Positions 27,150-53,223 of a stretch of DNA of 64,000 nt are shown here, piece by piece. The notes beneath the pieces were generated by a model, which saw nothing but the letters and a program-made list of their open reading frames with translations, did not search any database and was not told where the DNA came from. Origin of the DNA: Candidatus Giovannonibacteria bacterium (GTDB lineage: Bacteria; Patescibacteriota; Minisyncoccia; UBA11713; 2-01-FULL-45-33). How positions within the stretch are numbered: the stretch's first letter is position 1; each line of letters opens with the position of its first letter. Where the stretch lies: assembly GCA_016432405.1 (NCBI GenBank), contig CP066687.1:219040-283039 (forward strand). Reading direction: 5' to 3'. The translations under genes and the position numbers were made by a program.

Positions 27150-27197
27150 AGTATATACTCTACGTTCAGATGCCCAAAACACAGAGGAGGGCTGAAG

Positions 27198-32710: not shown

Positions 32711-33469
32711 ATGAAAAATATCCGCATCATACCGCGGCTGGACATAAAAGGGCCGAATGTTGTAAAGCCGGTGCATACGGAAGCGCTGCGCGTTGTGGGC
32801 GACCCGAAAGAATCGGCTATACGTTATCACAAAGAGGGCGCGGACGAGCTGATTTACTTGGACATCGTTGCAAGTTTATATCAGAGGAATCTTGATTTTG
32901 ATTTATTAAAATCCGTAACCGAAAATATTTTCATACCGGTAACCGTCGGCGGCGGCATCCGGACGATTCATGACATAAATAACGCTCTGCGTTCGGGAGC
33001 GGATAAAGTCGCGATTAACACTTACGCTGTCCGCCACCCGGAATTTTTAAGCGAGGCGGCAAAAGAATTCGGCTCTCAATGTATTGTGCTTTACATTGAA
33101 GCAAAAAAACAGCCCAACGGCGCTTATGAGGCGTACACAGATGGCGGAAGGGAGCATTCTGGGCTTGATGCCGTAGAATGGGCAAGACGCGGTATTGAGC
33201 TTGGCGTCGGCGAGATTTTGGTGACATCGGTTGACCGCGACGGAACCAGACGGGGGTATGATTTGGATTTAATCCGACGAATCAGCGCCTTCTCGCCGGT
33301 TCCGGTTATCGCGCACGGCGGCGCTGGGGATTTGGAATCTTTGGACAAAGTTATTATGGATGGGAAAGCAGATGCCATTTCTGCATCCTCAATTTTTCAT
33401 TACGGAGATTTTAAGATAGGAGATGTTAAAAATTATCTAAAAGCAAAAAATATAAATGTCCGAACCTAA
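32711..33469 (+). CDS. HisF-like cyclase subunit of the glycan amidotransferase complex (WbuZ-like imidazole glycerol phosphate synthase paralogue)
   Basis: IIPRLDIKG...VVK and VTVGGGIRT...VDRDGT are HisF motifs. It sits beside a HisH-like gene and a PP-loop amidotransferase. Confidence 0.7.
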   Translation: MKNIRIIPRLDIKGPNVVKPVHTEALRVVGDPKESAIRYHKEGADELIYLDIVASLYQRNLDFDLLKSVTENIFIPVTVGGGIRTIHDINNALRSGADKVAINTYAVRHPEFLSEAAKEFGSQCIVLYIEAKKQPNGAYEAYTDGGREHSGLDAVEWARRGIELGVGEILVTSVDRDGTRRGYDLDLIRRISAFSPVPVIAHGGAGDLESLDKVIMDGKADAISASSIFHYGDFKIGDVKNYLKAKNINVRT

Positions 33470-34064
33470 AATAACAATTATTGATTACGGTGTTGGAAAT
33501 CTGCATAGTCTGCGGCGGGCATTTAAGTTTTTTGAAATTGATGCGGCGATTTCTGAAGACGCGGATGAAATTTTAAACTCGGATGCCGTAGTTTTGCCCG
33601 GGGTCGGTTCTTTTGAGGCGGGAATGAGAGGCCTTAAGGTTCGCGGGCTCGTTGATGCCGTGAAAGAATTTGCTGTCAGCAACAAGCCGATGCTTGGCAT
33701 ATGTTTGGGCGCGCAGATTTTGCTTTCAGAAGGGCATGAGTTCGGGGTTTTTGAAGGGCTGGACATAATTCCTGGCAAAGTTACGCGTTTCCCGGAGCTT
33801 GCCGGCGGGGAGAAAATACCGCATATCGGATGGAATAGAGTCAGCTCGCCCGGCGGAGACGCGTGGAACAAAGATTTTTATTTCGTACATTCTTATATTT
33901 TGCGGCCGGAAAAAAGGGAGCACATTTTCGGGCTTACAACTTACGGCGGGCAGGAATTTTGCTCGGTTGTGAAAAAAGGCAACATTTACGGGACGCAGTT
34001 CCATCCGGAGCGCAGCGGCGATGCCGGGCTTGAGATAATTAAAAATTTCATTAAGATCGCATGA
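33456..34064 (+). CDS. HisH-like glutamine amidotransferase subunit (WbuY-like)
   Basis: IIDYGVGNLHS...LPGVGSF...GICLGAQIL...HSY...QFHPE; the class I GATase triad is present. Confidence 0.7.
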   Translation: MSEPKITIIDYGVGNLHSLRRAFKFFEIDAAISEDADEILNSDAVVLPGVGSFEAGMRGLKVRGLVDAVKEFAVSNKPMLGICLGAQILLSEGHEFGVFEGLDIIPGKVTRFPELAGGEKIPHIGWNRVSSPGGDAWNKDFYFVHSYILRPEKREHIFGLTTYGGQEFCSVVKKGNIYGTQFHPERSGDAGLEIIKNFIKIA

Positions 34065-35335
34065 TTTCAAAAGTTAAGAACACGCAAGTCAAATACGGTT
34101 TGCCGCAAGAGGTTAAGTTTTGTAAAAAGTGCGTAATTTCCAACCAGCGGCCGAATTCAGCAATTGAATTCGCGCACACAAGCGACACTCGCAAAGCCAC
34201 GATTAACTTTGATGCTGAAGGAGTTTGTGATGCGTGCCGCTTTGCCAAAATAAAAAAAACTCAAATTGACTGGGCCGAACGTGAACGGCAGTTGGCGGCA
34301 TTGTGCGGTAGATACCGCAAAAATAACGGAGAATACGACTGCATCGTTCCGGGGTCCGGGGGCAAAGATAGTTTTTACGCCGCCCATATTTTGAAATATA
34401 AATACGGCATGCACCCGTTGACGGTGACTTGGGCGCCGCATCTTTATACCGATTGGGGGTGGAAAAATTTTCAGGCGTGGATTCACGCCGGGTTTGACAA
34501 TTACTTGCATACGCCGAACGGCAATGTGCATCGCTTATTAACCCGCCTTGCTCTTGAAAAACTTTTTCATCCCTTCCAGCCGTTTATTTTGGGGCAAAAA
34601 TCCCTCCCGCCAAAATTAGCCGTATCTTTTAATATCCCCTTGGTTTTTTACGGAGAAAATGAAGCAGAATACGGCAACCCAATTGCGGATATGTCCACTG
34701 CCAAACGCGACCGGTCTTATTTCACGGCGAAAGATCAATCCAAAATTTATTTAGGCGGCGTATCCGTAGCGGATCTTAAACAGCGCTACGATATTTCAGA
34801 TAACGATCTTCAGCAGTATTTCCCCGCCGATCCGGCAAGAATGGAAAAAATCGCTTTGGAGGTACATTATCTGGGATATTATTTAAAGTGGCATCCGCAA
34901 TCCTGTTATTATTACGCGGTGGAACACGGTGGCTTTCAGGCCGCCCCGGAACGCAGCCCGGGGACATACGGAAAATATACCAGCATTGATGATAAAATGG
35001 ATGACTTGAATTTTTACACAATGTTCATAAAATTCGGCATTGGGCGCGCGACTTGGGATGCGGCGCAGGAAATAAGATCGGGCGATATAACGCGCGATGA
35101 AGGGGTATCGCTTGTGAGAAGATTTGACGGAGAATACCCCGCAAGATTTGAGGACGAACTTTTTCAGTATTTAAGCATTACGAAAAAGGACTTTTCGCCA
35201 AAGATTGTTAAAATGTTTGATTATCCTGCGATGAACAAAAAATATTTTATGAAATTAGCCGACGAATTTAGGTCGCCGCATTTATGGGAGCGTCTGCCGA
35301 ACGAAGAGTGGCGATTGAAACGCCAAGTCAGTTAA
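34061..35335 (+). CDS. N-acetyl sugar amidotransferase (WbuX/PseA-like PP-loop ATP pyrophosphatase)
   Basis: N-terminal zinc ribbon CKKC...CDAC; PP-loop CIVPGSGGKDS; 424 aa. Confidence 0.65.
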   Translation: MISKVKNTQVKYGLPQEVKFCKKCVISNQRPNSAIEFAHTSDTRKATINFDAEGVCDACRFAKIKKTQIDWAERERQLAALCGRYRKNNGEYDCIVPGSGGKDSFYAAHILKYKYGMHPLTVTWAPHLYTDWGWKNFQAWIHAGFDNYLHTPNGNVHRLLTRLALEKLFHPFQPFILGQKSLPPKLAVSFNIPLVFYGENEAEYGNPIADMSTAKRDRSYFTAKDQSKIYLGGVSVADLKQRYDISDNDLQQYFPADPARMEKIALEVHYLGYYLKWHPQSCYYYAVEHGGFQAAPERSPGTYGKYTSIDDKMDDLNFYTMFIKFGIGRATWDAAQEIRSGDITRDEGVSLVRRFDGEYPARFEDELFQYLSITKKDFSPKIVKMFDYPAMNKKYFMKLADEFRSPHLWERLPNEEWRLKRQVS

Positions 35336-35350: not shown

Positions 35351-36076
35351 ATGAAAGAAAAACTTTTGGCCATTATTCCCGCAAGAGGGGGGTCTAAACG
35401 CATTCCCAATAAAAACATCAGGAATTTTTTTGGCAAACCTTTGATTGCGCATACGATTTTGCAGGCAAAAGAAAATTCTTTTATTGACAGGGTGGTTGTG
35501 GACACGGATTCCCAAAAAATTGCGGCGATTGCGCGAAGATGCGGAGCGGAGGTGCCGTTTTTGCGCCCCAAGCGCTTGGCTGCAGACAAAGCCAGCGTCA
35601 ATGATTCGGCCGTTTATTTTCTAAAGAGATTAAAAAAAGAAGAAGGATACGAACCGGAATATGTAATGTTTTTGCACACAACCTCGCCGCTTCGCGAACA
35701 AAAGGACATTCATGAATGCTGGGAATTTATGAAAAAAAGCGGCGCCACAACCGTTCTTACCGTGTGCCCCACGCATCCGCGCCTTTATTATCTGGGCGCG
35801 AAAAATAAAATCATTTTGGCTAACAGCCCCGGAGACAAGCTGCCGTCTAATGTCCAGCAATGGCGCAAGGCGTACATTTTAAACGGCTGTTTCGTGTATA
35901 TTGTAAAAACATCCGCGTTGCTTAAAGAAAAAGACATTTTTACCAGCGATACAAGAGCCGTGGTTTGTGACAGGTGGCGGTCGGTTGATTTAGATAATCC
36001 CGAAGATTGGGTTTTGGCGGAATTGCTCTACAAAAATCGGAAAAAACTGGGTAAGCAAATTAAAAATTTTAAATAA
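35351..36076 (+). CDS. Acylneuraminate/nonulosonate cytidylyltransferase (NeuA/PseF/LegF family)
   Basis: LAIIPARGGSKRIPNKN is the CTP_transf_3 signature; 241 aa. Confidence 0.7.
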   Translation: MKEKLLAIIPARGGSKRIPNKNIRNFFGKPLIAHTILQAKENSFIDRVVVDTDSQKIAAIARRCGAEVPFLRPKRLAADKASVNDSAVYFLKRLKKEEGYEPEYVMFLHTTSPLREQKDIHECWEFMKKSGATTVLTVCPTHPRLYYLGAKNKIILANSPGDKLPSNVQQWRKAYILNGCFVYIVKTSALLKEKDIFTSDTRAVVCDRWRSVDLDNPEDWVLAELLYKNRKKLGKQIKNFK

Positions 36077-36083
36077 ATTTTCT

Positions 36084-36989
36084 ATGAAAATCGGCTTAAT
36101 CGGATTCGGTTCAATAGGACAGCGGCATTATAACAATTTAGTTAAGCGTACAAAAAATGTCATTGTGTTTTCTAGAAGGGACGATGTCAATTTGCCGCGT
36201 CAGGTTAAAAATTGGCGCGAATTTAAAAAGTGCGGTCCGTATGACGGCATTATTATCGCGAACGAAACTTCTAAACATGTTGTGACAATAAAAAAATGCA
36301 TTGCTCTATCCGCCGGCTGGCGGACCAAAGCGCTTTTTATAGAGAAACCGCTATCGCATAATTTAAAAAATCTGAATTCGCTCGGTCGGCTTTTGCTGAA
36401 GAATCGGATAAGCGCTTTTGTTGGATACTGCTTTCACTTTTTCGGGCCATTTATTAAAATTAAAAAAATTATCAAGAGCGGCAAACTGGGCCGAATTTAT
36501 TACTTGCGCGCGTCGGTGGGGCAGGACCTGAAAGAGTGGCGGCCGGGGCGCGATTATCGCAAAATTTATTCTGCGAGAAAAAATCTTGGCGGAGGGGTTT
36601 TGCTGGATTTAGTGCACGATATTAATTATCCCGCATGGCTTTTGGACGATGTTTTAATCCCGCAACGTTCTTTGGTCAAAAAGATATCTGATTTAAAAAT
36701 AAATACGGAGGATTTGGCGGAAAGCGTTTTTGTCGGCAAAAAGACTGGGGTAATCGTGTCCGTGCACCAGGATTATTTAAGAATTCCCGGCAGACGGTCC
36801 CTGGAAATAGCGGGCTCCAAGGGTAGTTTAATATGGAATTCGTCGGACGCCGAAGACCGCGGTAAGATGTATCAAAGAGAAATTAATTTTTTTATCGGTT
36901 TGATAAAAGGCGGCAAGTATTTTTCCAATTGGGATGAAGCCGTTTGGGATGTTAAAAACATAGAATATTTGAAAAAACATGGCGGATAA
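36084..36989 (+). CDS. Gfo/Idh/MocA family oxidoreductase
   Basis: KIGLIGFGSIGQRH...FIEKPLS. Confidence 0.6.
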   Translation: MKIGLIGFGSIGQRHYNNLVKRTKNVIVFSRRDDVNLPRQVKNWREFKKCGPYDGIIIANETSKHVVTIKKCIALSAGWRTKALFIEKPLSHNLKNLNSLGRLLLKNRISAFVGYCFHFFGPFIKIKKIIKSGKLGRIYYLRASVGQDLKEWRPGRDYRKIYSARKNLGGGVLLDLVHDINYPAWLLDDVLIPQRSLVKKISDLKINTEDLAESVFVGKKTGVIVSVHQDYLRIPGRRSLEIAGSKGSLIWNSSDAEDRGKMYQREINFFIGLIKGGKYFSNWDEAVWDVKNIEYLKKHGG

Positions 36990-37971
36990 GCTTACATTTT
37001 TGCAAATTGGGCTTGGGTCAATGGGTAAGCGGCGGGTGCGCAATCTTTTTGCCAACGGCGAGCAGAATGTTGTCGGCCTTGATTTTTCGGCGGAAAGGAG
37101 AAAAGAAGCGGAAGAAAAATACGGCATTAAAACATTTGATAATTTAAATAAAATTCAGGTTGAAAACATTGATGCGGTGAGCATCTCCACGCCCCCAGAC
37201 AAGCACGGGGATTACATCCGCTGGGCGCTTGCCAATAAAAAACATTTTTTTGTTGAGCTCGCGACGACAGACGACGGTTATGAAGAAATCCGCCGGCTGG
37301 CGGATAAAAATTCGGGCATTGTTATGGCGCCCTCCTGCTCATTTCGTTTTTTTCTCCCGATTAAAATGGTGAAAAAGTTTGTTGACAGCGGGCGCATCGG
37401 GAAAGTTTTGGCTTTTCACCATCATGCGGGCCAATATTTGCCGGAATGGCATCCGTGGGAAGATTACCGCCAAATTTATTTTGCCAAAAAAGAAACCGGC
37501 GCTTTCCGCACGATGTTTTTATTTGAACTTAGCTGGCTGAATTGGCTTTTCGGGCATCAGGCCAACGTCGTCTTCGGTTTTACGGATAAAATTTCGGACC
37601 TGGAGTTGGAAATGGGCGCCAAAGATATTACTTGGGCTTACTTAAAATATCAAAATAAAATTTTAGGCAGTCTGTTGATTGATGTCATTTCGCGCAAGCC
37701 ATTCCGGACGCTGCGTGTTTTGGGAAGCGATGGGGTGCTGGAATGGGAGTGGCTTGAGAATGTTATTAAAATTTACGATGCTAAAACAAAATTAACCGAT
37801 AATATTGATGTTCCGAAAGGCAACTCTGCAACCGGCTATTTGACCGCCGAGGATATGTATAACGACGAAATGAAAGCATTTGTTGACGCTATCTACGGCC
37901 GCGCGCCTTATCCTTATACTTTTGAAGAAGACTTGCGAAATTTACGGACTCTATATAAACTTGAGGAATAA
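36979..37971 (+). CDS. Gfo/Idh/MocA family oxidoreductase (second copy)
   Basis: FLQIGLGSMGKRR...FVELATT; 330 aa. Confidence 0.55.
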   Translation: MADKLTFLQIGLGSMGKRRVRNLFANGEQNVVGLDFSAERRKEAEEKYGIKTFDNLNKIQVENIDAVSISTPPDKHGDYIRWALANKKHFFVELATTDDGYEEIRRLADKNSGIVMAPSCSFRFFLPIKMVKKFVDSGRIGKVLAFHHHAGQYLPEWHPWEDYRQIYFAKKETGAFRTMFLFELSWLNWLFGHQANVVFGFTDKISDLELEMGAKDITWAYLKYQNKILGSLLIDVISRKPFRTLRVLGSDGVLEWEWLENVIKIYDAKTKLTDNIDVPKGNSATGYLTAEDMYNDEMKAFVDAIYGRAPYPYTFEEDLRNLRTLYKLEE

Positions 37972-37973
37972 AT

Positions 37974-38720
37974 ATGAGTACGCAAAACCCGTTTAATAAA
38001 AAAATTGTTCGAGAGCACGATAAGTTATATTTAAGCGAGAATCGCAAACTTAAAGTTAAAGAGAAGTTTAAGTCAATAATACGGATTGCGGATCGTCATT
38101 TGCGGAAACTTACGCGCCCTGAAATATTGGATGTCGGCTGCGCGACCGGCGACTTTCTCCACTATCTGCGCGCGCGCTATCCCAATGCTTCGCTTACCGG
38201 ATTGGATATTATGCCCGCGCTTTTGAAACTGGCAAAACGCGAGGTGCCGCAGGCAAGTTATGTGCGCGGCGATATTTATACGGGAAGAGGACTGCCCAAG
38301 AGTAAATTTGACGCGGTATTTCTTCTGGCCGTGCATAGCATATTTGATGATGTTGGTTCTTGGTTAGATAATTTACTTCGATTGGTAAAACCCAATGGCC
38401 ATATATTTGTCGATGGGCTTTTCAACCCCGAGGATGTTGATGTGGTTATGCGCGTGCGTTATGCAAAGCCGGGTTCGCGCTATCAGCGCGGATGGAATAT
38501 GTTTTCGCAGAAAACAGTGCTTGAACATTTGCGCAAACGAGGCGCGAAGGGCGCCTTTCATCGCTTCGTTATAGGAATCGATATCCCGCGGCATAAGGAC
38601 GACCCCCTGCGATCATGGACTTTTAAGCTTGAAAACGGCGAACGCGCTATCATCAACGGAACGCAAATACTCCACCAGTTCTACTTTTTAGAAATTACTC
38701 TCGGCAAAAATGATTCTTAA
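37974..38720 (+). CDS. Class I SAM-dependent methyltransferase
   Basis: ILDVGCATGDF is motif I; VKPNGHIFV is a later motif. Confidence 0.65.
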   Translation: MSTQNPFNKKIVREHDKLYLSENRKLKVKEKFKSIIRIADRHLRKLTRPEILDVGCATGDFLHYLRARYPNASLTGLDIMPALLKLAKREVPQASYVRGDIYTGRGLPKSKFDAVFLLAVHSIFDDVGSWLDNLLRLVKPNGHIFVDGLFNPEDVDVVMRVRYAKPGSRYQRGWNMFSQKTVLEHLRKRGAKGAFHRFVIGIDIPRHKDDPLRSWTFKLENGERAIINGTQILHQFYFLEITLGKNDS

Positions 38721-39942
38721 TAAAGGCAGGATTAAGAAAACAGAAAGTGAGACCCTCAAAACTTTTCGGGAAGAAATTCCTTCGCAATACTTTTCCCATA
38801 AAAACGAAGCCGCGTACAGGGATTATGTAAAGAACGCCGAATTTGTTTATAGAGAGCTGTTCAAATTCCCTCCGCAAATGTTTCGCGGCGCGGAACTTAT
38901 AGACTTCGGGGCGGGAACGGGGGAAAACACCGTGTATCTTGCAAGCTGGGGCGCCAAGTGCACGCTTGTTGAAATGAATTCCAAAGCGCAGAGCATCTCA
39001 AAAGAGGTGTTTAAACAATACGCGCGGAATTTTGACGACCATACTTTTATTTGTTCATCGATTTTTGATTATAGCCCGGAGAGCGGCAAGCTGTATGACA
39101 TTGTTCATTGCAGGGCCGTGCTCTCGCACACCGCAGCAAAGGAAATTGCTTTCCAAAAAATCGCGAGGATGGTCAAACCGGGCGGATTTCTGATTTTCGG
39201 AGACCCAAATAAGGCCGGGGGATTCCAGAATATGCTGCAGCGCTTCGCTGTCTATCATTTTGCTTCAACGCCCGACGAAATGGTAGAGGTTTGCGAATTT
39301 CTTTTTAAAGAAGACATTGACCGCAGTGAGAAGTTTATTCCTCGCACGCGCCGCGCCATCATTTTTGACAGATGGGTAATTCAATCCCAGGACGACCCTT
39401 CTGTTGCGGAAGTTACTGGCTGGATAAAGAAGAGCGGCATGCGTTTATATTCGTCATACCCCTCGTTCACGATGCCCCTTTTGGGGGACTCGCTGCATCA
39501 CCAGCCAAAGTTTGATGCTGCATCTGTATCTAATCTTGCTAGTCTTGGCGCGCTTACCGAACTGGTTTGGATGCTGCAGACAGAATCGGATAGCAAGGTC
39601 TTTCCCAAATTCATGAGCGGGCTGAATCCGCTTGCGGCGGCGCTTGCGAATCTTACATCATATGTGGCGAACTTCAATAAAAATACAAAGCTCGATGTTG
39701 GCCGTTTTCAAGAATTATCGCGCGCGCTGGCAAATTCTTCCGACGCGCTGAATTTTCTCCAGCCCCTTCGCGAGAAGCTTCTGCGAGCTCTTGGGGAAGC
39801 CGACGAGTTTGTTAGTTTGGTTCATACATCCGACTTAAATAAACTGCGCAAGTTTATAGAAAAAACAGAGGTTCTTTTTAAGGGCGCTTGCGGCTTGCGC
39901 CATGCGGATTTCATCGCTTACAAACCAATAGAGAATCGTTAA
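38710..39942 (+). CDS. SAM-dependent methyltransferase domain protein with a C-terminal extension
   Basis: LIDFGAGTGEN is motif I; VKPGGFLIF is a later motif; 410 aa. Confidence 0.55.
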   Translation: MILNKGRIKKTESETLKTFREEIPSQYFSHKNEAAYRDYVKNAEFVYRELFKFPPQMFRGAELIDFGAGTGENTVYLASWGAKCTLVEMNSKAQSISKEVFKQYARNFDDHTFICSSIFDYSPESGKLYDIVHCRAVLSHTAAKEIAFQKIARMVKPGGFLIFGDPNKAGGFQNMLQRFAVYHFASTPDEMVEVCEFLFKEDIDRSEKFIPRTRRAIIFDRWVIQSQDDPSVAEVTGWIKKSGMRLYSSYPSFTMPLLGDSLHHQPKFDAASVSNLASLGALTELVWMLQTESDSKVFPKFMSGLNPLAAALANLTSYVANFNKNTKLDVGRFQELSRALANSSDALNFLQPLREKLLRALGEADEFVSLVHTSDLNKLRKFIEKTEVLFKGACGLRHADFIAYKPIENR

Positions 39943-39950: not shown

Positions 39951-41084
39951 ATGAAAATCAACAGTCATAACGAATGGGACAAACTTCGGGAGATTATTGT
40001 TGGCCGCGGCGAAGGCCAGGCGCCACTTTTGTTTACAGAGCCCGGCCCGATTTCGGAGACTCTTTTGGAAAAAGCCAATCGTTTGGCGCGCGAAGCCTCG
40101 CCCAAATGGCTAATTGACGAAATAAATGAAGATTTAGAGGGATTAAGCGACGCGCTTAAATCCTTCGGCGTTAAGGTACATCGGCCGGAGACGTCGCATA
40201 TAAATAATTTCTTTGCAACGCCTTACTTCCGGGCGGCCGGAGATTATTGCTACAACATGAGAGACCTTCATCTTGTTGTTGGAAATACTGTTATTGAATC
40301 TCCATCTCAAGAAAAACATAGATATTTTGAGGCATCTGGTCTCTATGATATTTGGTATGAATATTTCAAAGAAGGATTTCGCTGGATTGCCGGGCCGAAG
40401 CCGAAACTTGCCGGCAATCCCATGATTACTTATTATGATGGCGAAAAAGATGAGTACGAAGACGGGCAGAAATTTATAAAATTAACCGAAAATGAAATTC
40501 TTTTTGAGGCAGCCAATACCGTGAGAATGGGCAAAGACTTGCTTTATCTGGTATCCAGATCAGGCAATAATCTTGGCGCAAAATGGTTGCAGAGCGTATT
40601 GGGTGATGAATATCGCGTGCACACTACTGAAAAAATTTACCGCTCCAGCCATATTGACTCAACTGTTTTGGCTTTGCGTCCTGGTCTTGTTTTGCTTAAT
40701 GCGACAAGGGTGTCGCCGGAGACTTGCCCTCCGATTTTAGATTCGTGGGAGAAAATTTATTTTACTGATATTGTTCCGGCGCCGGAGTCAACTGTAAAAT
40801 TTCACAAAGAGGTTCGTAAAAAGGTTCATGCCGAGCTTGCGTCTTTGGGCGTTCAATCAAGCCTTGATTCTATAGCATCGGATTGGATTGGCATGAATAT
40901 TCTTTCGGTGGATCCAAGCACCGTAATCGTTGACGAGCGGCAGGTTTCTTTAATCAATCTTTTAAAAAAACACAAAATTACTCCGGTCCCAATCCGCTTC
41001 AGACATTCTTATTACATGGGCGGCATCCATTGCAGCACACTGGACACGGTCAGAGAAAGCAAGCTGGAGAGCTATTTCAGTTAA
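39951..41084 (+). CDS. Amidinotransferase superfamily enzyme (guanidino-group modifying enzyme fold; glycine/inosamine amidinotransferase-like)
   Basis: C-terminal GGIHCSTLD is the catalytic Cys motif of the amidinotransferase/ADI/DDAH fold; about 378 aa. I chose the ATG at 39951, after the upstream stop at 39942. Confidence 0.5.
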   Translation: MKINSHNEWDKLREIIVGRGEGQAPLLFTEPGPISETLLEKANRLAREASPKWLIDEINEDLEGLSDALKSFGVKVHRPETSHINNFFATPYFRAAGDYCYNMRDLHLVVGNTVIESPSQEKHRYFEASGLYDIWYEYFKEGFRWIAGPKPKLAGNPMITYYDGEKDEYEDGQKFIKLTENEILFEAANTVRMGKDLLYLVSRSGNNLGAKWLQSVLGDEYRVHTTEKIYRSSHIDSTVLALRPGLVLLNATRVSPETCPPILDSWEKIYFTDIVPAPESTVKFHKEVRKKVHAELASLGVQSSLDSIASDWIGMNILSVDPSTVIVDERQVSLINLLKKHKITPVPIRFRHSYYMGGIHCSTLDTVRESKLESYFS

Positions 41085-41089: not shown

Positions 41090-42034
41090 ATGGCATATCC
41101 AAAAAAAATTCCGCACGGGATTATGTTTCATCACTTTTATAATGAAGCGCATCCCCGGGGGCAGGGCGCCATTTCCGCCGACGATTTAGACAACATATTA
41201 CGCTATGTTGGCATTGAAAGAATTTTGCCGCCGCTTGAGTGGTTAAAACGATTGAAAGAAAGCAAATTAAAAGACGGGGATGTTTGCCTGACTTTTGATG
41301 ACGCCCTTTTATGCCAGACGGAAATCGCCTTGCCTGTTTTAGAGAAATACGGTCTTAGGGCTTTTTGGTTTGTTTACTCCGGCGTTTTTGAAGGAAGACT
41401 GGAGAATCTGGAGCTCTACAGATTTTTCCGGGTAAAACATTTTGATAACATAGATGATTTTTATCAATTATTTTTAAAAAAAGTTTCTGATTTGGGAATG
41501 ACTGTACAAGTAAATTCGGAGTTTGAAAAAAAGATGCTGGCGGACTTCCCGTTTTACTCCGTAAATGACGTCCGATTTCGTTTTTTGCGCGACAAAGTGT
41601 TGGGAAAAGAGGATTACGAAAAAATAATGAATACTATGTTAAAAGATTATGGCTTGGACAAAAAAGAAATGTCGAAAAGTTTATGGATGTCGAACAGAAA
41701 TTTAAAATATCTTAGCGATAACGGACATATTGTTGGATTGCATTCTTATTCTCATCCCACATCATTTGCGGATTTGCCTTTTAAAGCGCAACTTGACGAG
41801 TATAAAAAAAATTACTCGCACATAAAACGAGTCACCGGCCAAAACCCGGTTGCCGTAGCGCATCCGGTGAATTCCTACAACGCGGACACGCTGAAGATTT
41901 TGGAAGAGCTAGGCATTATTTGCGGTTTTCGTTCAAATATGTTTCCAAAAACAAAAATGGGGGCGCTTAACGCCAACGCTTTTGAAATGGCCAGAGAAGA
42001 CCACGCCAATATTGCAAGGATGATGGAAACGTGA
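41090..42034 (+). CDS. Polysaccharide deacetylase (NodB homology, CE4-like)
   Basis: VCLTFDDAL is the NodB motif 1; HSYSHP is a His motif. I moved the start to the ATG at 41090. Confidence 0.55.
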   Translation: MAYPKKIPHGIMFHHFYNEAHPRGQGAISADDLDNILRYVGIERILPPLEWLKRLKESKLKDGDVCLTFDDALLCQTEIALPVLEKYGLRAFWFVYSGVFEGRLENLELYRFFRVKHFDNIDDFYQLFLKKVSDLGMTVQVNSEFEKKMLADFPFYSVNDVRFRFLRDKVLGKEDYEKIMNTMLKDYGLDKKEMSKSLWMSNRNLKYLSDNGHIVGLHSYSHPTSFADLPFKAQLDEYKKNYSHIKRVTGQNPVAVAHPVNSYNADTLKILEELGIICGFRSNMFPKTKMGALNANAFEMAREDHANIARMMET

Positions 42035-42071: not shown

Positions 42072-43256
42072 ATGTCTGAAGCCAAGATATGGATTTTGGA
42101 GAGGGGAGCAAAAAATGTTCTCTTGGCGTGTGGAAATCCGGGCGCTTATTCTGTCGTCGGTCCGTTGGTCGCCGCGCTAAAAGAAGACGCGCTCTGCGAG
42201 ACAATTATTGTTCTGACCTCGGGTTTTTCCAACAATGCGTTTGCCGAACAATTCGGAAAAGATTTTGTTCTGGTCGCCGGGCATAAGCTGGTTTTGGCGG
42301 ATTTGCTTGATCTTGCGGGACGAAAATGCATTGATATTGTTTTCGGAACGCTTAATGCCTTTAATAGTCCGGACGGCGTTGTGCTTTTTGGAGGAAAAAG
42401 TGTTCTTGGGGCTAAAAAGATATTTCTAGTTCTTGAGAGCTGGGGACAGCGGTTTAATCCGATTTTCGCGCCAAACAAGAAAAGAATGGACGAGATAAAC
42501 GGTATTTTTGTAAATGATGAGCTGGCTAAGGCGATTTTCGTTGAGAGCTGCGGTTTCCCGGAAGAAAAAATTTTTGCTACAGGCACGCCGAATTTAGATT
42601 CATTGGATGTGGCGAAAGCTGATAGTCACCGCAAAATGGCGCGAAACGAATGGGGCGTTAGCGAGGGCGATATTGTTATTTTGTACATCGGCGGCATCTC
42701 CAGCGAACTCCGCGATTGGTATGGTGCTAGGGAATATCTTGACGAAATTTCTTTTCGGATTTTGACGGACGAAGTTCAAAGCATTGCCCTGCATTTTCCC
42801 GAGAAGAATTTTGTTCTGGTCTTGCGGCCGCATCCCAGAGATTTGCAAAGAGAAGCCAAGCGCGCTTTGATTAGAAGCGCCGGCGTTTCAAAGAATTTAA
42901 TTTTCAAATCCGGCGGGCCTCCTTTTACCATAAACGACGCCGCTTACGGGGCTGACGTGATCTGCGGCATTATAAGTACGGAGAATTTTCTAGCGCCGCT
43001 TCGCGGCAGAAAAGCGATTTTCCTCGGCCTTAAAGGCAAAAACATGGGTTGGGAGACGTTGGAAGAAGTTTATGGAAAGCCGGGGATTGAGGCGATTGCC
43101 AAAATTTCGCCGGATGTCAAAATAGCCGATTCGCCGGAAAGTTTGGAGGATATTTTGGCCGATTTTGTGACGCGGCCGCGGACCAAGCCGCGCCTTGCTC
43201 CGGATTTTAAATCGGCAAAAAAGATTTTAGATATGGCTTTAGCGCAGGCGCAGTAA
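42072..43256 (+). CDS. Hypothetical protein, possibly GT-B-fold (epimerase/UDP-sugar hydrolase/glycosyltransferase-like)
   Basis: Alternating Rossmann-like beta-alpha pattern; it resembles nothing specific beyond the fold; 394 aa. Confidence 0.3.
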   Translation: MSEAKIWILERGAKNVLLACGNPGAYSVVGPLVAALKEDALCETIIVLTSGFSNNAFAEQFGKDFVLVAGHKLVLADLLDLAGRKCIDIVFGTLNAFNSPDGVVLFGGKSVLGAKKIFLVLESWGQRFNPIFAPNKKRMDEINGIFVNDELAKAIFVESCGFPEEKIFATGTPNLDSLDVAKADSHRKMARNEWGVSEGDIVILYIGGISSELRDWYGAREYLDEISFRILTDEVQSIALHFPEKNFVLVLRPHPRDLQREAKRALIRSAGVSKNLIFKSGGPPFTINDAAYGADVICGIISTENFLAPLRGRKAIFLGLKGKNMGWETLEEVYGKPGIEAIAKISPDVKIADSPESLEDILADFVTRPRTKPRLAPDFKSAKKILDMALAQAQ

Positions 43257-43276
43257 CTCATTACTGCGCTCTTTTT
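43248..43276. terminator. Bidirectional rho-independent terminator between convergent genes
   Basis: GCGCAGTAA-CTCA-TTACTGCGC perfect 9-bp stem followed by TCTTTTTAT. Confidence 0.6.
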
Positions 43277-44069
43277 ATCCAATATACGGATTTAGAAATT
43301 TTGAGAAGTCGCGATTTTTTAATTTTCCCAAAACCGTTTCCGGCGCGGGCAAATTATCCAGATAATCTCGCGCCACCTCATCGGTGAAATCCGCGCCTCT
43401 AGTGTATTTTATCTGCAAAGATTTATCCTGCGGCACCGGCGTCATTTTATCAATCTTGCCGTTTTTGATGTTTTCAATTAAACCTTTGTGGGCGGCTTTT
43501 ACCGCTCTCATGCCTAGCAGGAGTGGGTCGCCGATCGGCTCGGGGAACGCGTGAAAAAGCATATCGCCGGAATCCAAACCGCGGCTTAAAAGATGAATTG
43601 TTGCGCCAACATAATCAAAGTTTCCATGATAGGCCGCCCAAAAATTGCAGGAATTCCCGCGGTAATAAGGCGAGGTTCCAATATGGATGTTGTACGTTCT
43701 ATTCTTGACCAAAAACTCAACCAGCGGGCCTTTTATATAGCTTGAGCCAAAGACAATGTATTTATCCGATTTTAAGGCATCCGACAAAGTCTCCATGTTC
43801 AGCATGCTTAAATCGCCGGCTTTTATTGACAGCACCCGCACATTTTTAGGCAGAAATCTTGGCGCGCCGAAAATTTGCCTCTCCGGTTCAATAACCGCGC
43901 TCTTAAAATATTTCTGCATTATTTCCGTTTTGTTGTAAAAATCAGCCACCTCGCCGGTGAAAACGGTAAAGGATTCTATTACCGCGTAAACCTCCTCGGC
44001 AATTTTGGACAAATCTTCTATTAAAGAGATGTGGCGCGCCTGATTGCTTGTGAATATGGTTATTTTCAT
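43275..44069 (-). CDS. Formyltransferase-domain protein (Formyl_trans_N; sugar N-formyltransferase candidate)
   Basis: YNIHIGTSPYYRGNSCNFWAAYHG matches the hxSLLPxxRG formyltransferase motif; 264 aa. Confidence 0.5.
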   Translation of the reverse strand: MKITIFTSNQARHISLIEDLSKIAEEVYAVIESFTVFTGEVADFYNKTEIMQKYFKSAVIEPERQIFGAPRFLPKNVRVLSIKAGDLSMLNMETLSDALKSDKYIVFGSSYIKGPLVEFLVKNRTYNIHIGTSPYYRGNSCNFWAAYHGNFDYVGATIHLLSRGLDSGDMLFHAFPEPIGDPLLLGMRAVKAAHKGLIENIKNGKIDKMTPVPQDKSLQIKYTRGADFTDEVARDYLDNLPAPETVLGKLKNRDFSKFLNPYIG

Positions 44070-44128: not shown

Positions 44129-45271
44129 ATGAGGGAAATCGCTTATGTTTCGGGAACGCGGGCGGATTTTGGGCTGATGGCGCCGGTTTTGCGCGCTGTG
44201 CAAAAAAGCAAAAAACTGAAACTCCAGCTTTATATAACCGGCATGCATCTTATGCCTCGGTTCGGCAAAACCATAAATGAGGTGAGGAAATTTTTTCCAG
44301 CCGCCAAACACATTGACGCCGTTTTTGAAACGGATGATAGATTTGGCATGGCGCGGTTTGCCGGAGAATTTTTAAAAAAAGTCGCGGCGGTTTTTGAAAA
44401 ACAGAGGCCGGATACAGTTTTAATTTTGGGAGACCGGATTGAGATGCTGCTTACGGCCGCCGCCGCGCTTTATCTCGGCGTTCCCGTCGCACACATCCAC
44501 GGAGGCGAAAAAACTTTTACTTTGGACGAAGTCGCGCGGCACGCGATTACGAAAATGGCGCACATCCATTTCGCGGCCACAAAAGAATCTGCTGAAAGAA
44601 TTAGAAAGATGGGGGAGGAGGCGCGGAGAATCCATGTTGTCGGCGCGCCGGCGCTTGATGTAATTTTAAATGAAAAATTGCCGACTCGGGCGGAACTTTT
44701 TCAAAAACTGGGGATTAATCCTGAAGAGAAAGTTATTTTGCTAACCCAGCACCCTGTTAGCGAGGAGTTTAATGACGCCGGCAGGCAGATAAAAGAAACT
44801 CTGGCCGCGGTGAAATCTTTCGGGTTGCCCGTTGTGGCTATTTACCCGAATGCCGACCCCGGCGGAAGAGAAATTATTAAAGCCATTGAGAAAGAAAGGA
44901 AAAACCCGCTATTCAGGATATTCAAAAGCTTGGGGCATAAAGATTTTTTGGCGCTGGAGCGGGAAGCCGCGGTCTGGGTTGGGAATTCCAGCGCCGCGAT
45001 GATTGAATCCTCGTCTTTTAAGACGCCGTGCGTGAACGTAGGCGCGCGCCAATTGGGCCGCCGGCGCGGGGGAAACGTGATAGACGTCGGCTACAGCCGC
45101 TCTGAAATTAAAAAAGCAATAAAAAAGTCCTTGTACGATAAAAAATATCTGGTCCGGCTGAAAAAAATAAAAAATCCGTGGGGCGACGGCAAAACCGGCC
45201 CTCGTATTGCCAAGATTTTGGAGGATTTGGAAATCAACCGGAAATTATTGACTAAGCAAATCACTTATTAA
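44129..45271 (+). CDS. neuC: UDP-N-acetylglucosamine 2-epimerase (hydrolysing), NeuC/LegG family
   Basis: YVSGTRADFGLMAPVL...DTVLILGDRIEMLL...HIHGGE; 380 aa. Confidence 0.65.
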   Translation: MREIAYVSGTRADFGLMAPVLRAVQKSKKLKLQLYITGMHLMPRFGKTINEVRKFFPAAKHIDAVFETDDRFGMARFAGEFLKKVAAVFEKQRPDTVLILGDRIEMLLTAAAALYLGVPVAHIHGGEKTFTLDEVARHAITKMAHIHFAATKESAERIRKMGEEARRIHVVGAPALDVILNEKLPTRAELFQKLGINPEEKVILLTQHPVSEEFNDAGRQIKETLAAVKSFGLPVVAIYPNADPGGREIIKAIEKERKNPLFRIFKSLGHKDFLALEREAAVWVGNSSAAMIESSSFKTPCVNVGARQLGRRRGGNVIDVGYSRSEIKKAIKKSLYDKKYLVRLKKIKNPWGDGKTGPRIAKILEDLEINRKLLTKQITY

Positions 45272-45273: not shown

Positions 45274-46335
45274 ATGAACGGCTTGATTATCAGCGGCTAC
45301 GAAGTAAATTACGGCAATCCGCCGTTTATTATTGCTGAAGCGGGGGTTAATCATAACGGCGATTTTGATTTGGCGCTGAAACTAATTGACGCCGCGTCAA
45401 ACGCGGGAGCTGACGCGGTGAAATTCCAGACATTCCGTGCCGAGCAGGTTGTGACCGGAGCGGGCAAGATGGCCGATTATCAGAAAAAGAACATTGGCGC
45501 CGAAGAAAGCCAGCTGGAGATGTTAAGGAAATTGGAATTAAAAGAAGACTGGTATCCCGCATTGATCAAGCGCGCCAAAGAAAAAGGAATAATTTTTCTT
45601 TCTACGCCGCACGGCGGCTTCCAATCGGTTGATTTGTTGGAGTCCTACGATGTGCCGGCTTTTAAGTTCGGCTCGGGAGACCTTGCGAACACTCCGCTTT
45701 TGGAATACGCGGCGCGCCTCGGCAAGCCGATGCTTATATCAACGGGCATGTCTAATCTGGAAGATGTAAAAGAAGCAGTTGATGCGATAAAAAAAGCCGG
45801 CAACGACCAGATTTTGGTTTTTCATTGCACAACTGATTATCCCTTATCGTCAGAAGATGTTAATCTGCGCGCAATGCAGACATTGATGAAAGAGCTCGGC
45901 GGGCTTGTGGGGTATTCCGACCACACCGTGGGGCCGCAAGCAGCCATCGCGGCAGTTGCTCTTGGCGCCTGTATGATAGAAAAGCATTTTACTTTGGATA
46001 GAAAAATGAAAGGGCCGGATCACATTGCTTCCACCGAACCAAAAGAATTTCAAGAAATGGTTGCAATGTTAAAACAGGTGCCGCTAATGATGGGCAGTGG
46101 CGTAAAAGAGCTTCTTCCTGCCGAGCGCCAATACGTGACCGTGGCGAGAAAAAGCATTGTTGCCGCCTGCGACATTAAAAAAGGCGAAAAATTCACTCGC
46201 GAAAATCTGGATATCCGCCGCCCCGGCACCGGAATGCCGCCAAAATACTTAAATCAAATCATCGGCAAGACGGCCAAGTCAGGCATTCCAGCCGAAACCT
46301 TGATTAGCGAGGAAATGTTTTCTAATCAGGGTTAG
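45274..46335 (+). CDS. neuB: Nonulosonic acid synthase (NeuB/LegI/PseI family) with a C-terminal SAF domain
   Basis: FIIAEAGVNHNGD...KFQTF; 353 aa. Confidence 0.75.
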   Translation: MNGLIISGYEVNYGNPPFIIAEAGVNHNGDFDLALKLIDAASNAGADAVKFQTFRAEQVVTGAGKMADYQKKNIGAEESQLEMLRKLELKEDWYPALIKRAKEKGIIFLSTPHGGFQSVDLLESYDVPAFKFGSGDLANTPLLEYAARLGKPMLISTGMSNLEDVKEAVDAIKKAGNDQILVFHCTTDYPLSSEDVNLRAMQTLMKELGGLVGYSDHTVGPQAAIAAVALGACMIEKHFTLDRKMKGPDHIASTEPKEFQEMVAMLKQVPLMMGSGVKELLPAERQYVTVARKSIVAACDIKKGEKFTRENLDIRRPGTGMPPKYLNQIIGKTAKSGIPAETLISEEMFSNQG

Positions 46336-46349: not shown

Positions 46350-46772
46350 ATGTCTAGAACTAAAGCAAGATTCAAAAATTGGAGAGTGCCGAGAATTCGG
46401 CACGGTAAGCCGACAAAATATAATTGGGTGGTCTTGCGGCCGGAAGGATTAAAACTCGGCAAAAATACGGACATCGGCGCTTATACTTTGATTGCGGCCC
46501 ACTATGGCGTGGAAATAGAGGACGACGTGCAGGTTGGCTCGCACTGCTCGCTTTACTCGTATTCCACGATTGACAATAAAAAGGGGAAAGTGGTGCTCAA
46601 GACAAATTGCCGCATCGGCACGCATAGCTCCGTGATGCCCGGAATTACAATTGGCGAAAACACCATCGTCGGCGCGCATAGTTTTGTAAATAAGAGTTTG
46701 CCGCCCAATGTAATTGCCGTCGGTGTTCCCGCAAGGGTTTTGAGAAAATTGTCCAAGAAACCCCGAGCGTAG
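46350..46772 (+). CDS. Hexapeptide-repeat acetyltransferase (NeuD/PseH/LegH-like)
   Basis: LbH repeats IGTHSSVMPGITIGENTIVGAHSFV; 140 aa. Confidence 0.55.
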   Translation: MSRTKARFKNWRVPRIRHGKPTKYNWVVLRPEGLKLGKNTDIGAYTLIAAHYGVEIEDDVQVGSHCSLYSYSTIDNKKGKVVLKTNCRIGTHSSVMPGITIGENTIVGAHSFVNKSLPPNVIAVGVPARVLRKLSKKPRA

Positions 46773-46788: not shown

Positions 46789-47934
46789 TTGATCATGAAA
46801 AAATATCCTAGCGCAAAGCCGCATATCACCGCTAAAGAAAAAAAATACGTAATAGAAGTTTTAAACTCCGGTATTTTAAGTATCGGCCAAAAACAGGAAC
46901 AATTTGAAAAAAAATTCTCGGAGTTCGTGGGCACCAAGTATGCCATTGCTGTCTCTTCCGGCACGGCGGGGCTGCATCTCGCTATGATTGCGGCCGGCAT
47001 TGGGCCGGGCGATGAAGTAATTACAACGCCTTTTTCGTTTGTCGCGTCCGCCAACGCGATTTTGTACGTCGGCGCCAAGCCGGTTTTTGCGGATATTGAC
47101 CCTTTGACTTACAACATTGACCCGAATAAAATTGAACAAGCTATAACAAAAAAAACCAAAGCGATTTTGGTCGTGCACATCTTCGGCCAGCCGGCGGAAA
47201 TGGCTCCTATTTTGAAAATCGCCAAAAAGCATAATTTAAAAATTATTGAAGACGCCTGCGAATCTCTGGGCGCGAAATACAAAGGCAGGATGGCCGGGAC
47301 ATTCGGCGAATCGGCCGTTTTCGCTTTTTACGCGAACAAGCAAATGACTACCGGCGAAGGCGGAGTCATTGTAACCGGCGATAAAAGGATTTACGAGCTT
47401 TGCAGAAGTTTGCGCAACCAAGGCAGGGCCGAGAATATGCAGTGGCTGGACCACAACCGGCTCGGTTATAATTACCGGATGGACGAGATGAGCGCGGCCG
47501 TCGGCCTTGCGCAGATTGAGAATATTGATTTTCTTTTGAGCGAGCGCCGCATCGCCGATTGGTATCATGAATTTTTGGCGCCGCACGGCGGCTTGATTCA
47601 AGCTCCTCAAACGCATCCGCACAACACCCACACATGGATGGTTTACGTTGTCCGCATCAAAAACCTGCCCGACGGCAAGGCGGGTAAAAATATTAATCGC
47701 GACAGAGTCATACTTGACCTTCAAAAACAGGGAATTAGCACAAAGCCGTATTTGCCTTCAATCCATCTTTTCAGTTTTTACAGAAGCAGGTTTGGATTTA
47801 AACCGGGCGATTACCCGATCTCCGAAGCCGTGAGCGCAAGCGCGCTGGCTTTGCCGTTTTATATAGGCCTGAAAAAACAAGACATTAAATATATATCCAA
47901 TAAAGTCGCTGATGCCGTCAAAAAATACAACTAA
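46789..47934 (+). CDS. DegT family aminotransferase (PseC/LegC-like nucleotide-sugar 4-aminotransferase)
   Basis: ILSIGQKQEQFEKKFSEFVG...AVSSGTAGL...FAFYANKQMT; 381 aa. Confidence 0.7.
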   Translation: MIMKKYPSAKPHITAKEKKYVIEVLNSGILSIGQKQEQFEKKFSEFVGTKYAIAVSSGTAGLHLAMIAAGIGPGDEVITTPFSFVASANAILYVGAKPVFADIDPLTYNIDPNKIEQAITKKTKAILVVHIFGQPAEMAPILKIAKKHNLKIIEDACESLGAKYKGRMAGTFGESAVFAFYANKQMTTGEGGVIVTGDKRIYELCRSLRNQGRAENMQWLDHNRLGYNYRMDEMSAAVGLAQIENIDFLLSERRIADWYHEFLAPHGGLIQAPQTHPHNTHTWMVYVVRIKNLPDGKAGKNINRDRVILDLQKQGISTKPYLPSIHLFSFYRSRFGFKPGDYPISEAVSASALALPFYIGLKKQDIKYISNKVADAVKKYN

Positions 47935-48868
47935 AGTATTGATTTGCGGGGGCGCCGGCTATGTCGGCGGACATCTCGCCGATTTGCTTATGGAAAAAAG
48001 ATACAACGTTGCCGTTTATGATAATCTTATCTACGAAGATCGCTATTTGAAAAATATAAATTTTATTTACGGAGATATCCGCGATAAAGAAAAATTGGGC
48101 CGGATTATAAACAATTTTGACATTGTTATTTGGCTGGCGGCTATAGTTGGGGATGAGGCGTGCGCGATTAATCCTACTGTTACCAGAGAAATTAATCTCT
48201 CCGCCGTTCAGTGGCTTACTAGAAATTATAAAGGCAAAATAGTTTATACTTCCACCTGCTCTGTTTACGGGAAAAACGACGGCTTGCTGGATGAATCGTC
48301 GGAGGTCAAGCCATTGTCGCATTACGCTGCAACCAAATTGAACGCAGAAAAAGAAATTATGGCGCGTTCAAACGACTATCTTATATTCAGGCTCGGCACT
48401 CTTTTTGGCGCAGGAGACAGGCACGCGCGGTTGAGATTTGATCTCGCCGTTAATTTGCTGACCCAAAGAGCCGCCGCGAATGAGCTCTTGACGGTTTTCG
48501 GCGGCGAGCAATGGAGACCGCTAATGCACGTCAAAGACGCCGCGGAGGGAATAGTGTTCGGAATAGAAAATAACCTGAACGGCCTGTTTAATTTAAGCGC
48601 CAAGAACTACAAGGTTTCTGAAATCGCGGATACGATAAAAAAGATAATTCCCGACGCAAAAGTTGAACACGATAATGTCACGTTTGAAGACTTGAGAAAT
48701 TATAAAGTTTCTTCTGCAAAGTTCATGTCATACGGATGGAAGCCGCGGTATAGTTTGGAAGACGGCGTGCGGGAAATTTACCAGCTTATCACGGCCGGCA
48801 GGATTCGCGACCCAAAAAACGCCATTTATTCTAATGGCCAATATTTAAAAAATGCAGAGCGAATTTAA
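47912..48868 (+). CDS. NAD-dependent epimerase/dehydratase (extended SDR)
   Basis: VLICGGAGYVGGHL; YAATK is the YxxxK motif; overlaps the upstream gene by 23 nt. Confidence 0.65.
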   Translation: MPSKNTTKVLICGGAGYVGGHLADLLMEKRYNVAVYDNLIYEDRYLKNINFIYGDIRDKEKLGRIINNFDIVIWLAAIVGDEACAINPTVTREINLSAVQWLTRNYKGKIVYTSTCSVYGKNDGLLDESSEVKPLSHYAATKLNAEKEIMARSNDYLIFRLGTLFGAGDRHARLRFDLAVNLLTQRAAANELLTVFGGEQWRPLMHVKDAAEGIVFGIENNLNGLFNLSAKNYKVSEIADTIKKIIPDAKVEHDNVTFEDLRNYKVSSAKFMSYGWKPRYSLEDGVREIYQLITAGRIRDPKNAIYSNGQYLKNAERI

Positions 48869-51688: not shown

Positions 51689-51689
51689 C

Positions 51690-53204: not shown

Positions 53205-53223
53205 AGTATCTCGCTAAGGTATT

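Follow-up and report, generated by a model that had tools for sequence, protein, structure and literature searches.

What is an enzyme of the amidinotransferase fold doing inside a cluster of glycan genes? The question is raised by a stretch of 64,000 nucleotides from a Candidatus Giovannonibacteria bacterium (GenBank assembly GCA_016432405.1, contig CP066687.1, positions 219,040 to 283,039 of the forward strand), here called the window, in which the gene in question, termed AMT, occupies positions 39951 to 41084 of the plus strand. The answer that emerges from sequence, structure, and genome context is that AMT is an integral and conserved part of operons for nonulosonic acids (NulOs), in the company of a NodB-type deacetylase and a methyltransferase. 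NulOs, among them the sialic, legionaminic, and pseudaminic acids, are surface sugars found on flagella, S-layers, capsules, and lipopolysaccharide. It is likely that AMT has a role in the NulO pathway. As to the reaction, we lean towards AMT guanidinylating a sugar amine exposed by the NodB-type enzyme, with L-arginine as donor and N-methylation as the following step, a reading drawn from gene context only.

Reading frame and family assignment

The AMT gene runs from an ATG at 39951 to a TAA at 41082 to 41084 and encodes 377 amino acids, MKINSHNEWDKL...YMGGIHCSTLDTVRESKLESYFS, with the motif GGIHCSTLD in the C-terminal segment YMGGIHCSTLDTVRESKLESYFS. An alternative TTG start at 39888 would give a longer protein and a 55-nucleotide overlap with the upstream gene. 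The longer form is not supported; as all homologues begin at the position of MKINSHNEWD, the ATG at 39951 is the right start. The open reading frame and C-terminal motif given in a first-pass annotation, made by a model from the DNA letters, are thus borne out by the translation and by the starts of the homologues.

Comparison with all PDB chains by phmmer returns amidinotransferases as the only significant matches, namely StrB1 (1bwd, E = 1.7e-70), SxtG (1.6e-54), HsvA (1.9e-44), and human AGAT (about 1e-43), each spanning AMT residues 3 to 376 in two stretches. Arginine deiminase (ADI) and dimethylarginine dimethylaminohydrolase (DDAH) give no match in this search at E < 10. A model computed with AlphaFold2 from an alignment of 23 family members (mean predicted local distance difference test score 82.6, predicted template modeling [TM] score 0.83) has the pentein alpha/beta-propeller fold. 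Its top Foldseek match is again 1bwd (E = 5.6e-31, TM 0.74/0.80, 36% identity), and the top seven matches are all amidinotransferases; ADI, DDAH, and ArgZ follow at E values of about 1e-9, with 10 to 15% identity and TM of about 0.5. Together with the alignment of the catalytic cysteine, Cys361, these comparisons agree with the first-pass view of an amidinotransferase-fold enzyme, and the protein is very probably a competent member of that family. PDB homology, Foldseek, and the family alignment place it in a NulO-associated clade of the AGAT/StrB1 family, referred to here as Glu-type for reasons given below.

The Pfam profile named in the first-pass annotation, PF02274, gave a weaker result. 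AMT scores 14.7 bits against a gathering cut-off of 22.8, over the C-terminal 56 residues only, and NCBIfam gives no match; some AMT homologues do pass PF02274. This profile, which is named for arginine deiminase, covers the AMT clade poorly, and the sub-threshold score is not taken as excluding membership. The case for family membership is therefore made by the PDB matches and the structure comparison, not by Pfam.

Active site and the triad glutamate

Alignment of AMT to the AGAT chains with HMMER (AGAT numbering being chain position plus 37) brings seven active-site positions into register. The guanidinium-binding residues D170 and D305 of AGAT correspond to D105 and D236 of AMT, the arginine carboxylate-binding residues R322 and S355 to R253 and S310, the triad histidine H303 (H227 in StrB1) to H234, the triad acid D254 to E186, and the nucleophile C407 (C332 in StrB1) to C361. 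The last of these, encoded at 41031 to 41033 on the plus strand, lies in GGIHCSTLD, which aligns residue for residue with GGFHCATLD of StrB1 and GGFHCWTCD of AGAT. All seven AMT residues are invariant in the 23-member family alignment (23/23 for C361), and C361 and H234 are kept in essentially all full-length genes among the 114 that were tabulated from the loci described below.

Of the Cys/His/Asp triad envisaged in the first-pass annotation, the cysteine and the histidine therefore stand, while the third residue is not Asp but a family-invariant Glu186 (codon 40506 to 40508, plus strand) at the position of AGAT D254 and StrB1 D179, in the motif FEAAN in place of FDAAN or FDAAD. Glutamate is the triad residue used by the hydrolytic branches, DDAH and ADI. 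It could therefore be speculated that AMT is a hydrolase, that is, a deiminase or amidinohydrolase of a guanidino or acetamidino sugar, with a Cys-His-Glu triad like that of DDAH and ADI. A WbuX/HisH/HisF acetamidino module within the same cluster would be in keeping with such an activity, as would the name "dimethylarginine dimethylaminohydrolase" that JGI pipelines give to some homologues. However, both sequence and fold place AMT nearer to amidinotransferases than to hydrolases, by a margin of over 20 orders of magnitude, and the retained carboxylate-binding pair Arg253 and Ser310 fits free arginine as donor. WbuX accompanies AMT in only about 7 of the 48 loci examined for gene neighbors, and an Asp-type sister clade shares both the insert and the NulO context of AMT. 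Glutamate is moreover sporadic across the amidinotransferase family itself: when the matches of an exhaustive HMMER search of the family were clustered at 50% identity, the triad-acid position of the roughly 100 full-length cluster representatives was occupied by Asp in 82 cases and by Glu in 15. As Glu occurs in 15 of these representatives, Asp does not define the family, and Glu is, judging from them, a recurrent and tolerated variant within amidinotransferases that is not by itself the mark of a hydrolase. An initial equation of Glu with hydrolysis was downgraded on account of this scatter and of the Asp-type sister clade in the same NulO context, and we consider a hydrolase very unlikely. 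An arginine or agmatine deiminase of primary metabolism, which the first-pass annotation had kept in view, fits poorly with the E values (about 1e-9 for ADI and DDAH against 1e-31 for StrB1) and with the position of the gene in a glycan operon.

A further feature sets AMT apart from the characterized enzymes. Residues 276 to 308 (40776 to 40874, plus strand) form a 33-residue insert that appears as an alignment gap in StrB1 and AGAT, stops two residues before the substrate-binding Ser310, and marks one subclade of the amidinotransferase family. In the AlphaFold2 model it is predicted as a long helix (279 to 298), and it contains the invariant Arg289. A second clade-specific position is Arg231 (or Lys), beside the catalytic histidine at the flap position held by Asn300 in AGAT. 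Both are kept in essentially all members of both branches of the NulO-associated clade, as might be expected if the acceptor is negatively charged, for example a nucleotide sugar or the carboxylate of a NulO.

Set beside its known relatives, AMT comes closest to StrB1, the L-arginine:inosamine-phosphate amidinotransferase of Streptomyces griseus. The two have in common the Cys, the His, the guanidinium-binding Asp pair, and the Arg/Ser carboxylate site, and they are of the same length around the catalytic His (KIYRSSH in AMT, KLYASTH in StrB1), neither having the extra residue of the AGAT flap; the StrB1 acceptor is also a phosphorylated, sugar-like amine. They differ in that Asp179 of StrB1 is Glu in AMT, in the helical insert with Arg289 and in Arg231, and in genomic setting, which is a NulO operon with NodB and a methyltransferase for AMT and a streptomycin-type aminocyclitol cluster for StrB1. 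Human AGAT (1jdw) shares the seven aligned active-site positions and the ping-pong Cys-amidino mechanism, and the N-methyltransferase gene next to AMT recalls the sequence of amidination and N-methylation carried out by AGAT and GAMT. Identity to AGAT is 28%, however, the presumed acceptor is a sugar amine rather than glycine, and AMT has Glu for Asp254 and Arg at Asn300. The SxtG, HsvA, and CyrA-type enzymes (6u1r, 5wpi) belong to the same family and fold and illustrate that the scaffold takes varied amine acceptors, but at 29 to 32% identity they lack the insert and come from unrelated gene clusters. AMT thus belongs neither to the StrB1 aminocyclitol group nor to the deiminase/DDAH branches.

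The operon around AMT

What the first-pass annotation called a glycan cluster does consist of glycan genes and, judged by its gene content, is more precisely a NulO operon of the legionaminic acid (Leg) type. On the plus strand it combines a CMP-nonulosonic acid synthetase (35351 to 36076; CTP_transf_3, 88.7 bits, PseF-like but under the equivalog cut-off), a 2-epimerase of the hydrolyzing UDP-GlcNAc type (44129 to 45271; Epimerase_2, 271.8 bits), a NeuB synthase (45274 to 46335; 305.7 bits), a hexapeptide acetyltransferase (46350 to 46772), a DegT aminotransferase (46789 to 47934; 403.6 bits), an NAD epimerase/reductase (47912 to 48868), and a PseB/Polysacc_synt_2 dehydratase (48852 to 49889; 337.4 bits). 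NeuB, Epimerase_2, CMP-transferase, 4,6-dehydratase, aminotransferase, and N-acetyltransferase are thus found together, a set that identifies the Leg type, whichever isomer (Leg, 8-epi-Leg, or other) is made.

AMT itself is tightly packed between its immediate neighbors. A class-I S-adenosylmethionine-dependent methyltransferase of 410 amino acids (38710 to 39942, plus strand) ends just upstream, and a NodB-type deacetylase (Polysacc_deac_1; 41090 to 42034, plus strand) begins 5 nucleotides past the AMT stop codon, the spacing between the three genes being 5 to 8 nucleotides. The deacetylase, of 314 amino acids, is predicted to be cytoplasmic and carries the metal-binding and catalytic motifs TFDD and HSYSH. 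Further upstream on the same strand lie a second class-I methyltransferase of 248 amino acids (37974 to 38720) and two Gfo/Idh/MocA oxidoreductases (36084 to 36989 and 36979 to 37971), a type that is common in Leg-type clusters and recurs in the Leg operons of two long contigs discussed below. All of these neighbors had been named in the first-pass annotation, and Pfam confirms each of them.

The Gfo/Idh/MocA pair bears on a reading that had been raised by analogy with StrB1, in which AMT would be an inosamine-phosphate amidinotransferase and the pair, with the DegT aminotransferase, would make the inosamine. StrB1 is indeed the top PDB match, and the two oxidoreductases are weakly IolG-like (58 to 65 bits against a cut-off of 355). 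Yet identity to StrB1 is only 36%, and StrB-like genes of Streptomyces are just 31 to 34% identical to AMT and have no neighbor in common with it. The sister-clade operons have no Gfo/Idh/MocA genes, nor do many loci of the window clade, and genes of aminocyclitol formation, such as an inositol-phosphate synthase or a kinase, were not observed. With no conserved context behind it, an aminocyclitol acceptor is extremely improbable.

Conservation of the neighborhood across phyla

The nearest relative of the whole region is found in metagenome-assembled genomes (MAGs) of Candidatus Giovannonibacteria, in which AMT is 92% identical and gene order is kept. The family is large, with 1298 matches in a word-indexed search, and unusually well conserved, the best 120 being 65 to 92% identical. 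One genome per GTDB species was scanned with Glu-specific patterns, which under-sample Asp-type genomes, and 45 loci at 50 to 92% identity to AMT were obtained. They are spread over Parcubacteria, Saccharibacteria, one DPANN archaeon, Rokubacteria, Binatia, SAR202, Planctomycetota, Acidobacteriota, Leptospiraceae, Gammaproteobacteria, Pelagibacteraceae (SAR11), and single-cell genomes of Prochlorococcus.

To count neighbors, the open reading frames of 48 loci were searched with iterated profiles seeded from the window proteins. A NodB-type gene directly adjoins AMT (gap of at most 202 bp) in 40 of the 48 loci and lies within 2.3 kb in 44, and NeuB, 2-epimerase, and CMP-transferase genes occur within 10 kb of AMT in most of them. 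A class-I methyltransferase of any kind adjoins AMT in about 30 of 48 loci, and the 410-residue type does so in about 24 of 45. The order of action proposed in the first-pass annotation, from deacetylase to amidinotransferase to methyltransferase, thus has strong comparative support, NodB adjoining in 40/48 loci and a methyltransferase in most. The NodB partners retain TFDD or TLDD in 45/45 and H[ST]xxH in 38/45, and the lack of an N-terminal hydrophobic segment marks them as cytoplasmic enzymes rather than exported polymer deacetylases.

Two long contigs (L004 and L005) are particularly instructive, as the NodB-AMT pair is placed there within a canonical operon, legI-legG-legH-NodB-AMT-ptmE-legB-legC. 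The corresponding gene types are NeuB, 2-epimerase, PglD-like acetyltransferase, NodB, AMT, a CBS/NTP-transferase (PtmE-like), dehydratase, and aminotransferase.

The 410-residue methyltransferase carries a C-terminal extension of about 230 residues that has no Pfam, NCBIfam, or PDB match; its homologues (41 to 93% identity) adjoin AMT in about half of the loci. Shorter AMT homologues of about 300 to 337 amino acids, at 29 to 38% identity and with the insert absent, were found on 21 IMG/VR viral contigs (L144 to L164). Being distant and insert-less, they were dropped as evidence on the insert-bearing clade.

A sister clade in pseudaminic acid operons

Within the insert-bearing clade, the members nearest AMT have Glu at the triad-acid position, and the remaining members, at 39 to 47% identity, carry Asp instead. 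Each of four Asp-type representatives lies in an operon of the pseudaminic acid (Pse) type with the order PseB-PseC-PseG-like-PseI-AMT-PseF, and a metagenome scan with an Asp-type alignment added 80 further loci. NeuB is found within two genes upstream of AMT in 44 of 78 loci of that scan, and 15 contigs carry a complete Pse-AMT operon in the order PseB-PseC-(PseF)-PseG-PseI-(methyltransferase)-AMT. The minimal operon of this sister clade, PseB-PseC-PseG-PseI-AMT-PseF, is seen in contigs L064, L087, and L097. The only cultured carrier that was found, Calothrix sp. NIES-2100 (L142, AP018178.1), is also Asp-type.

In known Pse pathways the N-acetyltransferase PseH caps the 4-amino group introduced by PseC. 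None of the 15 complete Asp-type operons holds a hexapeptide acetyltransferase (0/15), and a GNAT lies near only one of them (L067), upstream and divergently oriented. The small open reading frames tested in and near these operons matched DUF29, NusG-like, methyltransferase, PhyH, or short-chain dehydrogenase/reductase families or gave no match. NodB is missing from these operons and occurs in only three loci of the whole Asp-type scan set. It would appear, then, that in Pse operons AMT, often with a methyltransferase, takes the usual place of PseH, although the rule is not absolute. Asp-type AMT would share with PseH (or LegH) the operon position and the logical step, capping of the 4-amino group of a nucleotide sugar, while differing in fold, in donor (arginine in place of acetyl-CoA), and in product (guanidine in place of acetamide).

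Cross-tabulation of the triad residue against operon type for 114 insert-bearing genes brings the two branches into clear relief. Among Glu genes, NodB is adjacent in 41, a Leg-type 2-epimerase is present without NodB or PseG in 3, PseG (Pse type) is found in 0, and 5 have another context or lie on short contigs; the respective counts for Asp genes are 2, 1, 34, and 28. Glu versus Asp thus tracks operon type almost perfectly.

The adjacency of AMT and methyltransferase genes in most loci could also be taken to indicate an AGAT/GAMT-like pair that makes a small, creatine-like N-methylguanidino metabolite, unrelated to the sugar or attached to it later, and the 410-residue methyltransferase is weakly similar to sarcosine/dimethylglycine N-methyltransferase (35 bits, far below the cut-off). 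However, the pair occurs within NulO operons in more than 100 independent contigs, and no conserved ligase or acyltransferase that might attach such a metabolite goes with it. A metabolite of this kind would also leave unexplained both the NodB adjacency in 40/48 loci and the Pse operons that lack PseH, and we regard it as very improbable.

Additional genes of the Asp-type operons suggest further modification or regulation. In Calothrix sp. NIES-2100, the gene after AMT (L142, 11450 to 13549) encodes a 699-residue fusion of a methyltransferase with PhyH, a 2-oxoglutarate dioxygenase, and the operons of L070 and L089 are each followed by a separate PhyH-like open reading frame. Hydroxylation is thus a possible additional modification. 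A NusG-paralogue gene directly upstream of PseB in L086 (259 to 771) and L097 (615 to 1127) suggests RfaH-like antitermination of long glycan operons.

Proposed reaction and product

By analogy with AGAT and StrB1, Cys361 would be the nucleophile that attacks arginine at its guanidino carbon, His234 and Glu186 would complete the triad, Asp105 and Asp236 would hold the guanidinium group, and Arg253 and Ser310 would hold the alpha-carboxylate. Ornithine would be released, and the S-amidino enzyme would hand its amidino group to a primary sugar amine. Gene context suggests that this amine belongs to the NulO or to its nucleotide-sugar precursor. In a Leg-type operon such as that of the window, it would probably be made by the adjacent cytoplasmic NodB-type de-N-acetylase, and the most economical target would be the GlcNAc-derived acetamido group that later becomes N5. 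This is the simplest choice because the GlcNAc-derived acetyl group is unavoidable in the pathway and because Leg operons keep their acetyltransferase and yet add a de-N-acetylase. The data would fit equally well with loss of the N7 acetyl group once the NulO is assembled. In the Pse operons, the absence of an acetyltransferase would leave the aminotransferase-derived amine free as the AMT acceptor.

The 410-residue methyltransferase would then N-methylate the guanidine, paralleling the AGAT/GAMT sequence, and the product, a guanidino or methylguanidino Leg-type sugar, would be activated by the CMP-transferase and exported into a surface glycan. A wider proposal, plausible but tentative, is that the two branches of the insert-bearing clade make guanidino or N-methylguanidino sialic-acid-like sugars, the Asp type replacing PseH to give a 7-guanidino sugar and the Glu type acting with NodB to give probably a 5-guanidino sugar, with a spread over the Candidate Phyla Radiation (CPR), DPANN, SAR11, Prochlorococcus, cyanobacteria, Acidobacteriota, and Planctomycetota.

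It is also conceivable that AMT acts in the same glycan pathway on an amine other than the NulO ring amine, such as an aminoacyl or aminoalkyl substituent or another sugar of the repeat unit, with NodB working on a different residue. The window does contain a second amino-sugar pathway (genes at 23210, 24788, and 25896) and several transferases, and the results leave room for more than one position of modification. Across phyla, however, only NodB, the methyltransferase, and the NulO core genes consistently travel with AMT, and the minimal sister-clade operon of L064, L087, and L097 leaves no further amine-bearing intermediate, so that an acceptor of this kind seems rather unlikely.

Besides the sub-threshold Pfam score and the triad glutamate described above, several points weigh against guanidinylation of a NulO amine. 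Full-text literature searches returned no paper in which a nonulosonic, legionaminic, or pseudaminic acid is connected with an amidinotransferase or a guanidino group; the product is hypothetical, and such searches are no proof of novelty. The Glu-type clade has no cultured carrier in the GTDB scan, where it is represented by MAGs and single-cell genomes only. Since the Leg-type operons retain their acetyltransferase, the amidinated amine may be N5 or N7, and the reaction may take place at the stage of the nucleotide sugar, the free NulO, or the CMP-NulO. In the sister clade, Calothrix sp. NIES-2100 has a GNAT two genes downstream of AMT, and a PseH gene could lie at another site in the carrier genomes. 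An earlier and stronger formulation, that the sister clade has no PseH at all, was softened in view of the GNATs in Calothrix and L067.

Biological and chemical significance

What would be new about guanidinylation by AMT is the union of an established enzyme family with an established sugar pathway, from which a new class of sugar is predicted. On the nitrogens of NulOs, acyl and acetamidino groups and a few amino-acyl groups are known, and we know of no natural guanidino NulO. If the proposal is correct, arginine-dependent guanidinylation would add a permanently cationic and chemically new group at no requirement for ATP or glutamine.

It may also be that such sugars have been overlooked. 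The guanidino group (CH4N3, 58.0405 Da) and the acetamido group (C2H4NO, 58.0293 Da) differ by a calculated 0.0112 Da, or about 33 ppm at m/z 335, and in low-resolution mass spectrometry a guanidino NulO would pass for a di-N-acetyl Pse or Leg. The corresponding prediction is a mass shift of +0.0112 Da relative to the di-N-acetyl sugar and a further +14.016 Da when methylated.

NulOs govern phage adsorption, immune recognition, and surface charge. SAR11 and Prochlorococcus, some of the most abundant marine bacteria, carry the module described here, and in them such genes belong to islands that vary between strains, presumably under the pressure of phages. The module also occurs in CPR and DPANN symbionts with reduced genomes, which attach to their hosts through their surfaces. 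Medicinal chemists, too, would find a natural guanidino analogue of sialic acid of interest, given that zanamivir, a synthetic neuraminidase inhibitor, is itself a sialic acid with a guanidino group.

Other genes of the glycan island

Upstream of the CMP-transferase gene, and on the same strand, the window carries a HisF-like gene (32711 to 33469), a HisH-like gene (33456 to 34064), and a gene for a WbuX N-acetyl sugar amidotransferase (34061 to 35335; TIGR03573, 389 bits against a cut-off of 203). This trio is the known ATP- and glutamine-dependent route to the acetamidino group on sugars. In outcome, the WbuX/PseA-type amidotransferases are the nearest functional analogue of the activity proposed for AMT, since they too give a nitrogen of a NulO or amino sugar a cationic group of the amidine type. 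They differ in their unrelated fold and in converting acetamide to acetamidine with ATP and glutamine, for which neither deacetylation nor arginine is needed. The window cluster may therefore install two different cationic N-substituents, acetamidino through the WbuX trio and guanidino through AMT.

The only minus-strand gene inside the cluster (43275 to 44069) is formyltransferase-like, with weak, below-cut-off similarity to Formyl_trans_N/fmt; it is 91% identical in the Giovannonibacteria relative and may encode an N-formyl-sugar enzyme. Between the genes for the CMP-transferase and the first Gfo protein, that relative (contigs L001/L002) has a Sulfotransfer_3 gene (4940 to 6148) that is missing from the window (35351 to 36084), and after NodB it has only a small open reading frame (11925 to 12284) where the window has a TagF-like Glyphos_transf gene (42072 to 43256). 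These differences indicate that the glycan cluster is mosaic between near-identical lineages.

The glycan island as a whole covers at least the 23 to 55 kb part of the window. A second deoxy-amino-sugar pathway lies at 23210 to 27554, with an NDP-sugar dehydratase (23210), a DegT aminotransferase (24788), and a C-methyltransferase (25896), the last a 552-residue protein with a zinc-binding domain (Methyltransf_13/14). Around the NulO cluster (30589 to 32100 on the minus strand, 42072 to 43256, and 49886 to 54625) are genes for a KpsC/KpsS-like Capsule_synth protein, two TagF-like Glyphos_transf proteins, an ATP-binding cassette exporter, and a sulfatase/lipoteichoic acid synthase-like protein, which resemble the assembly and export machinery of capsules or of teichoic-acid-style polymers.

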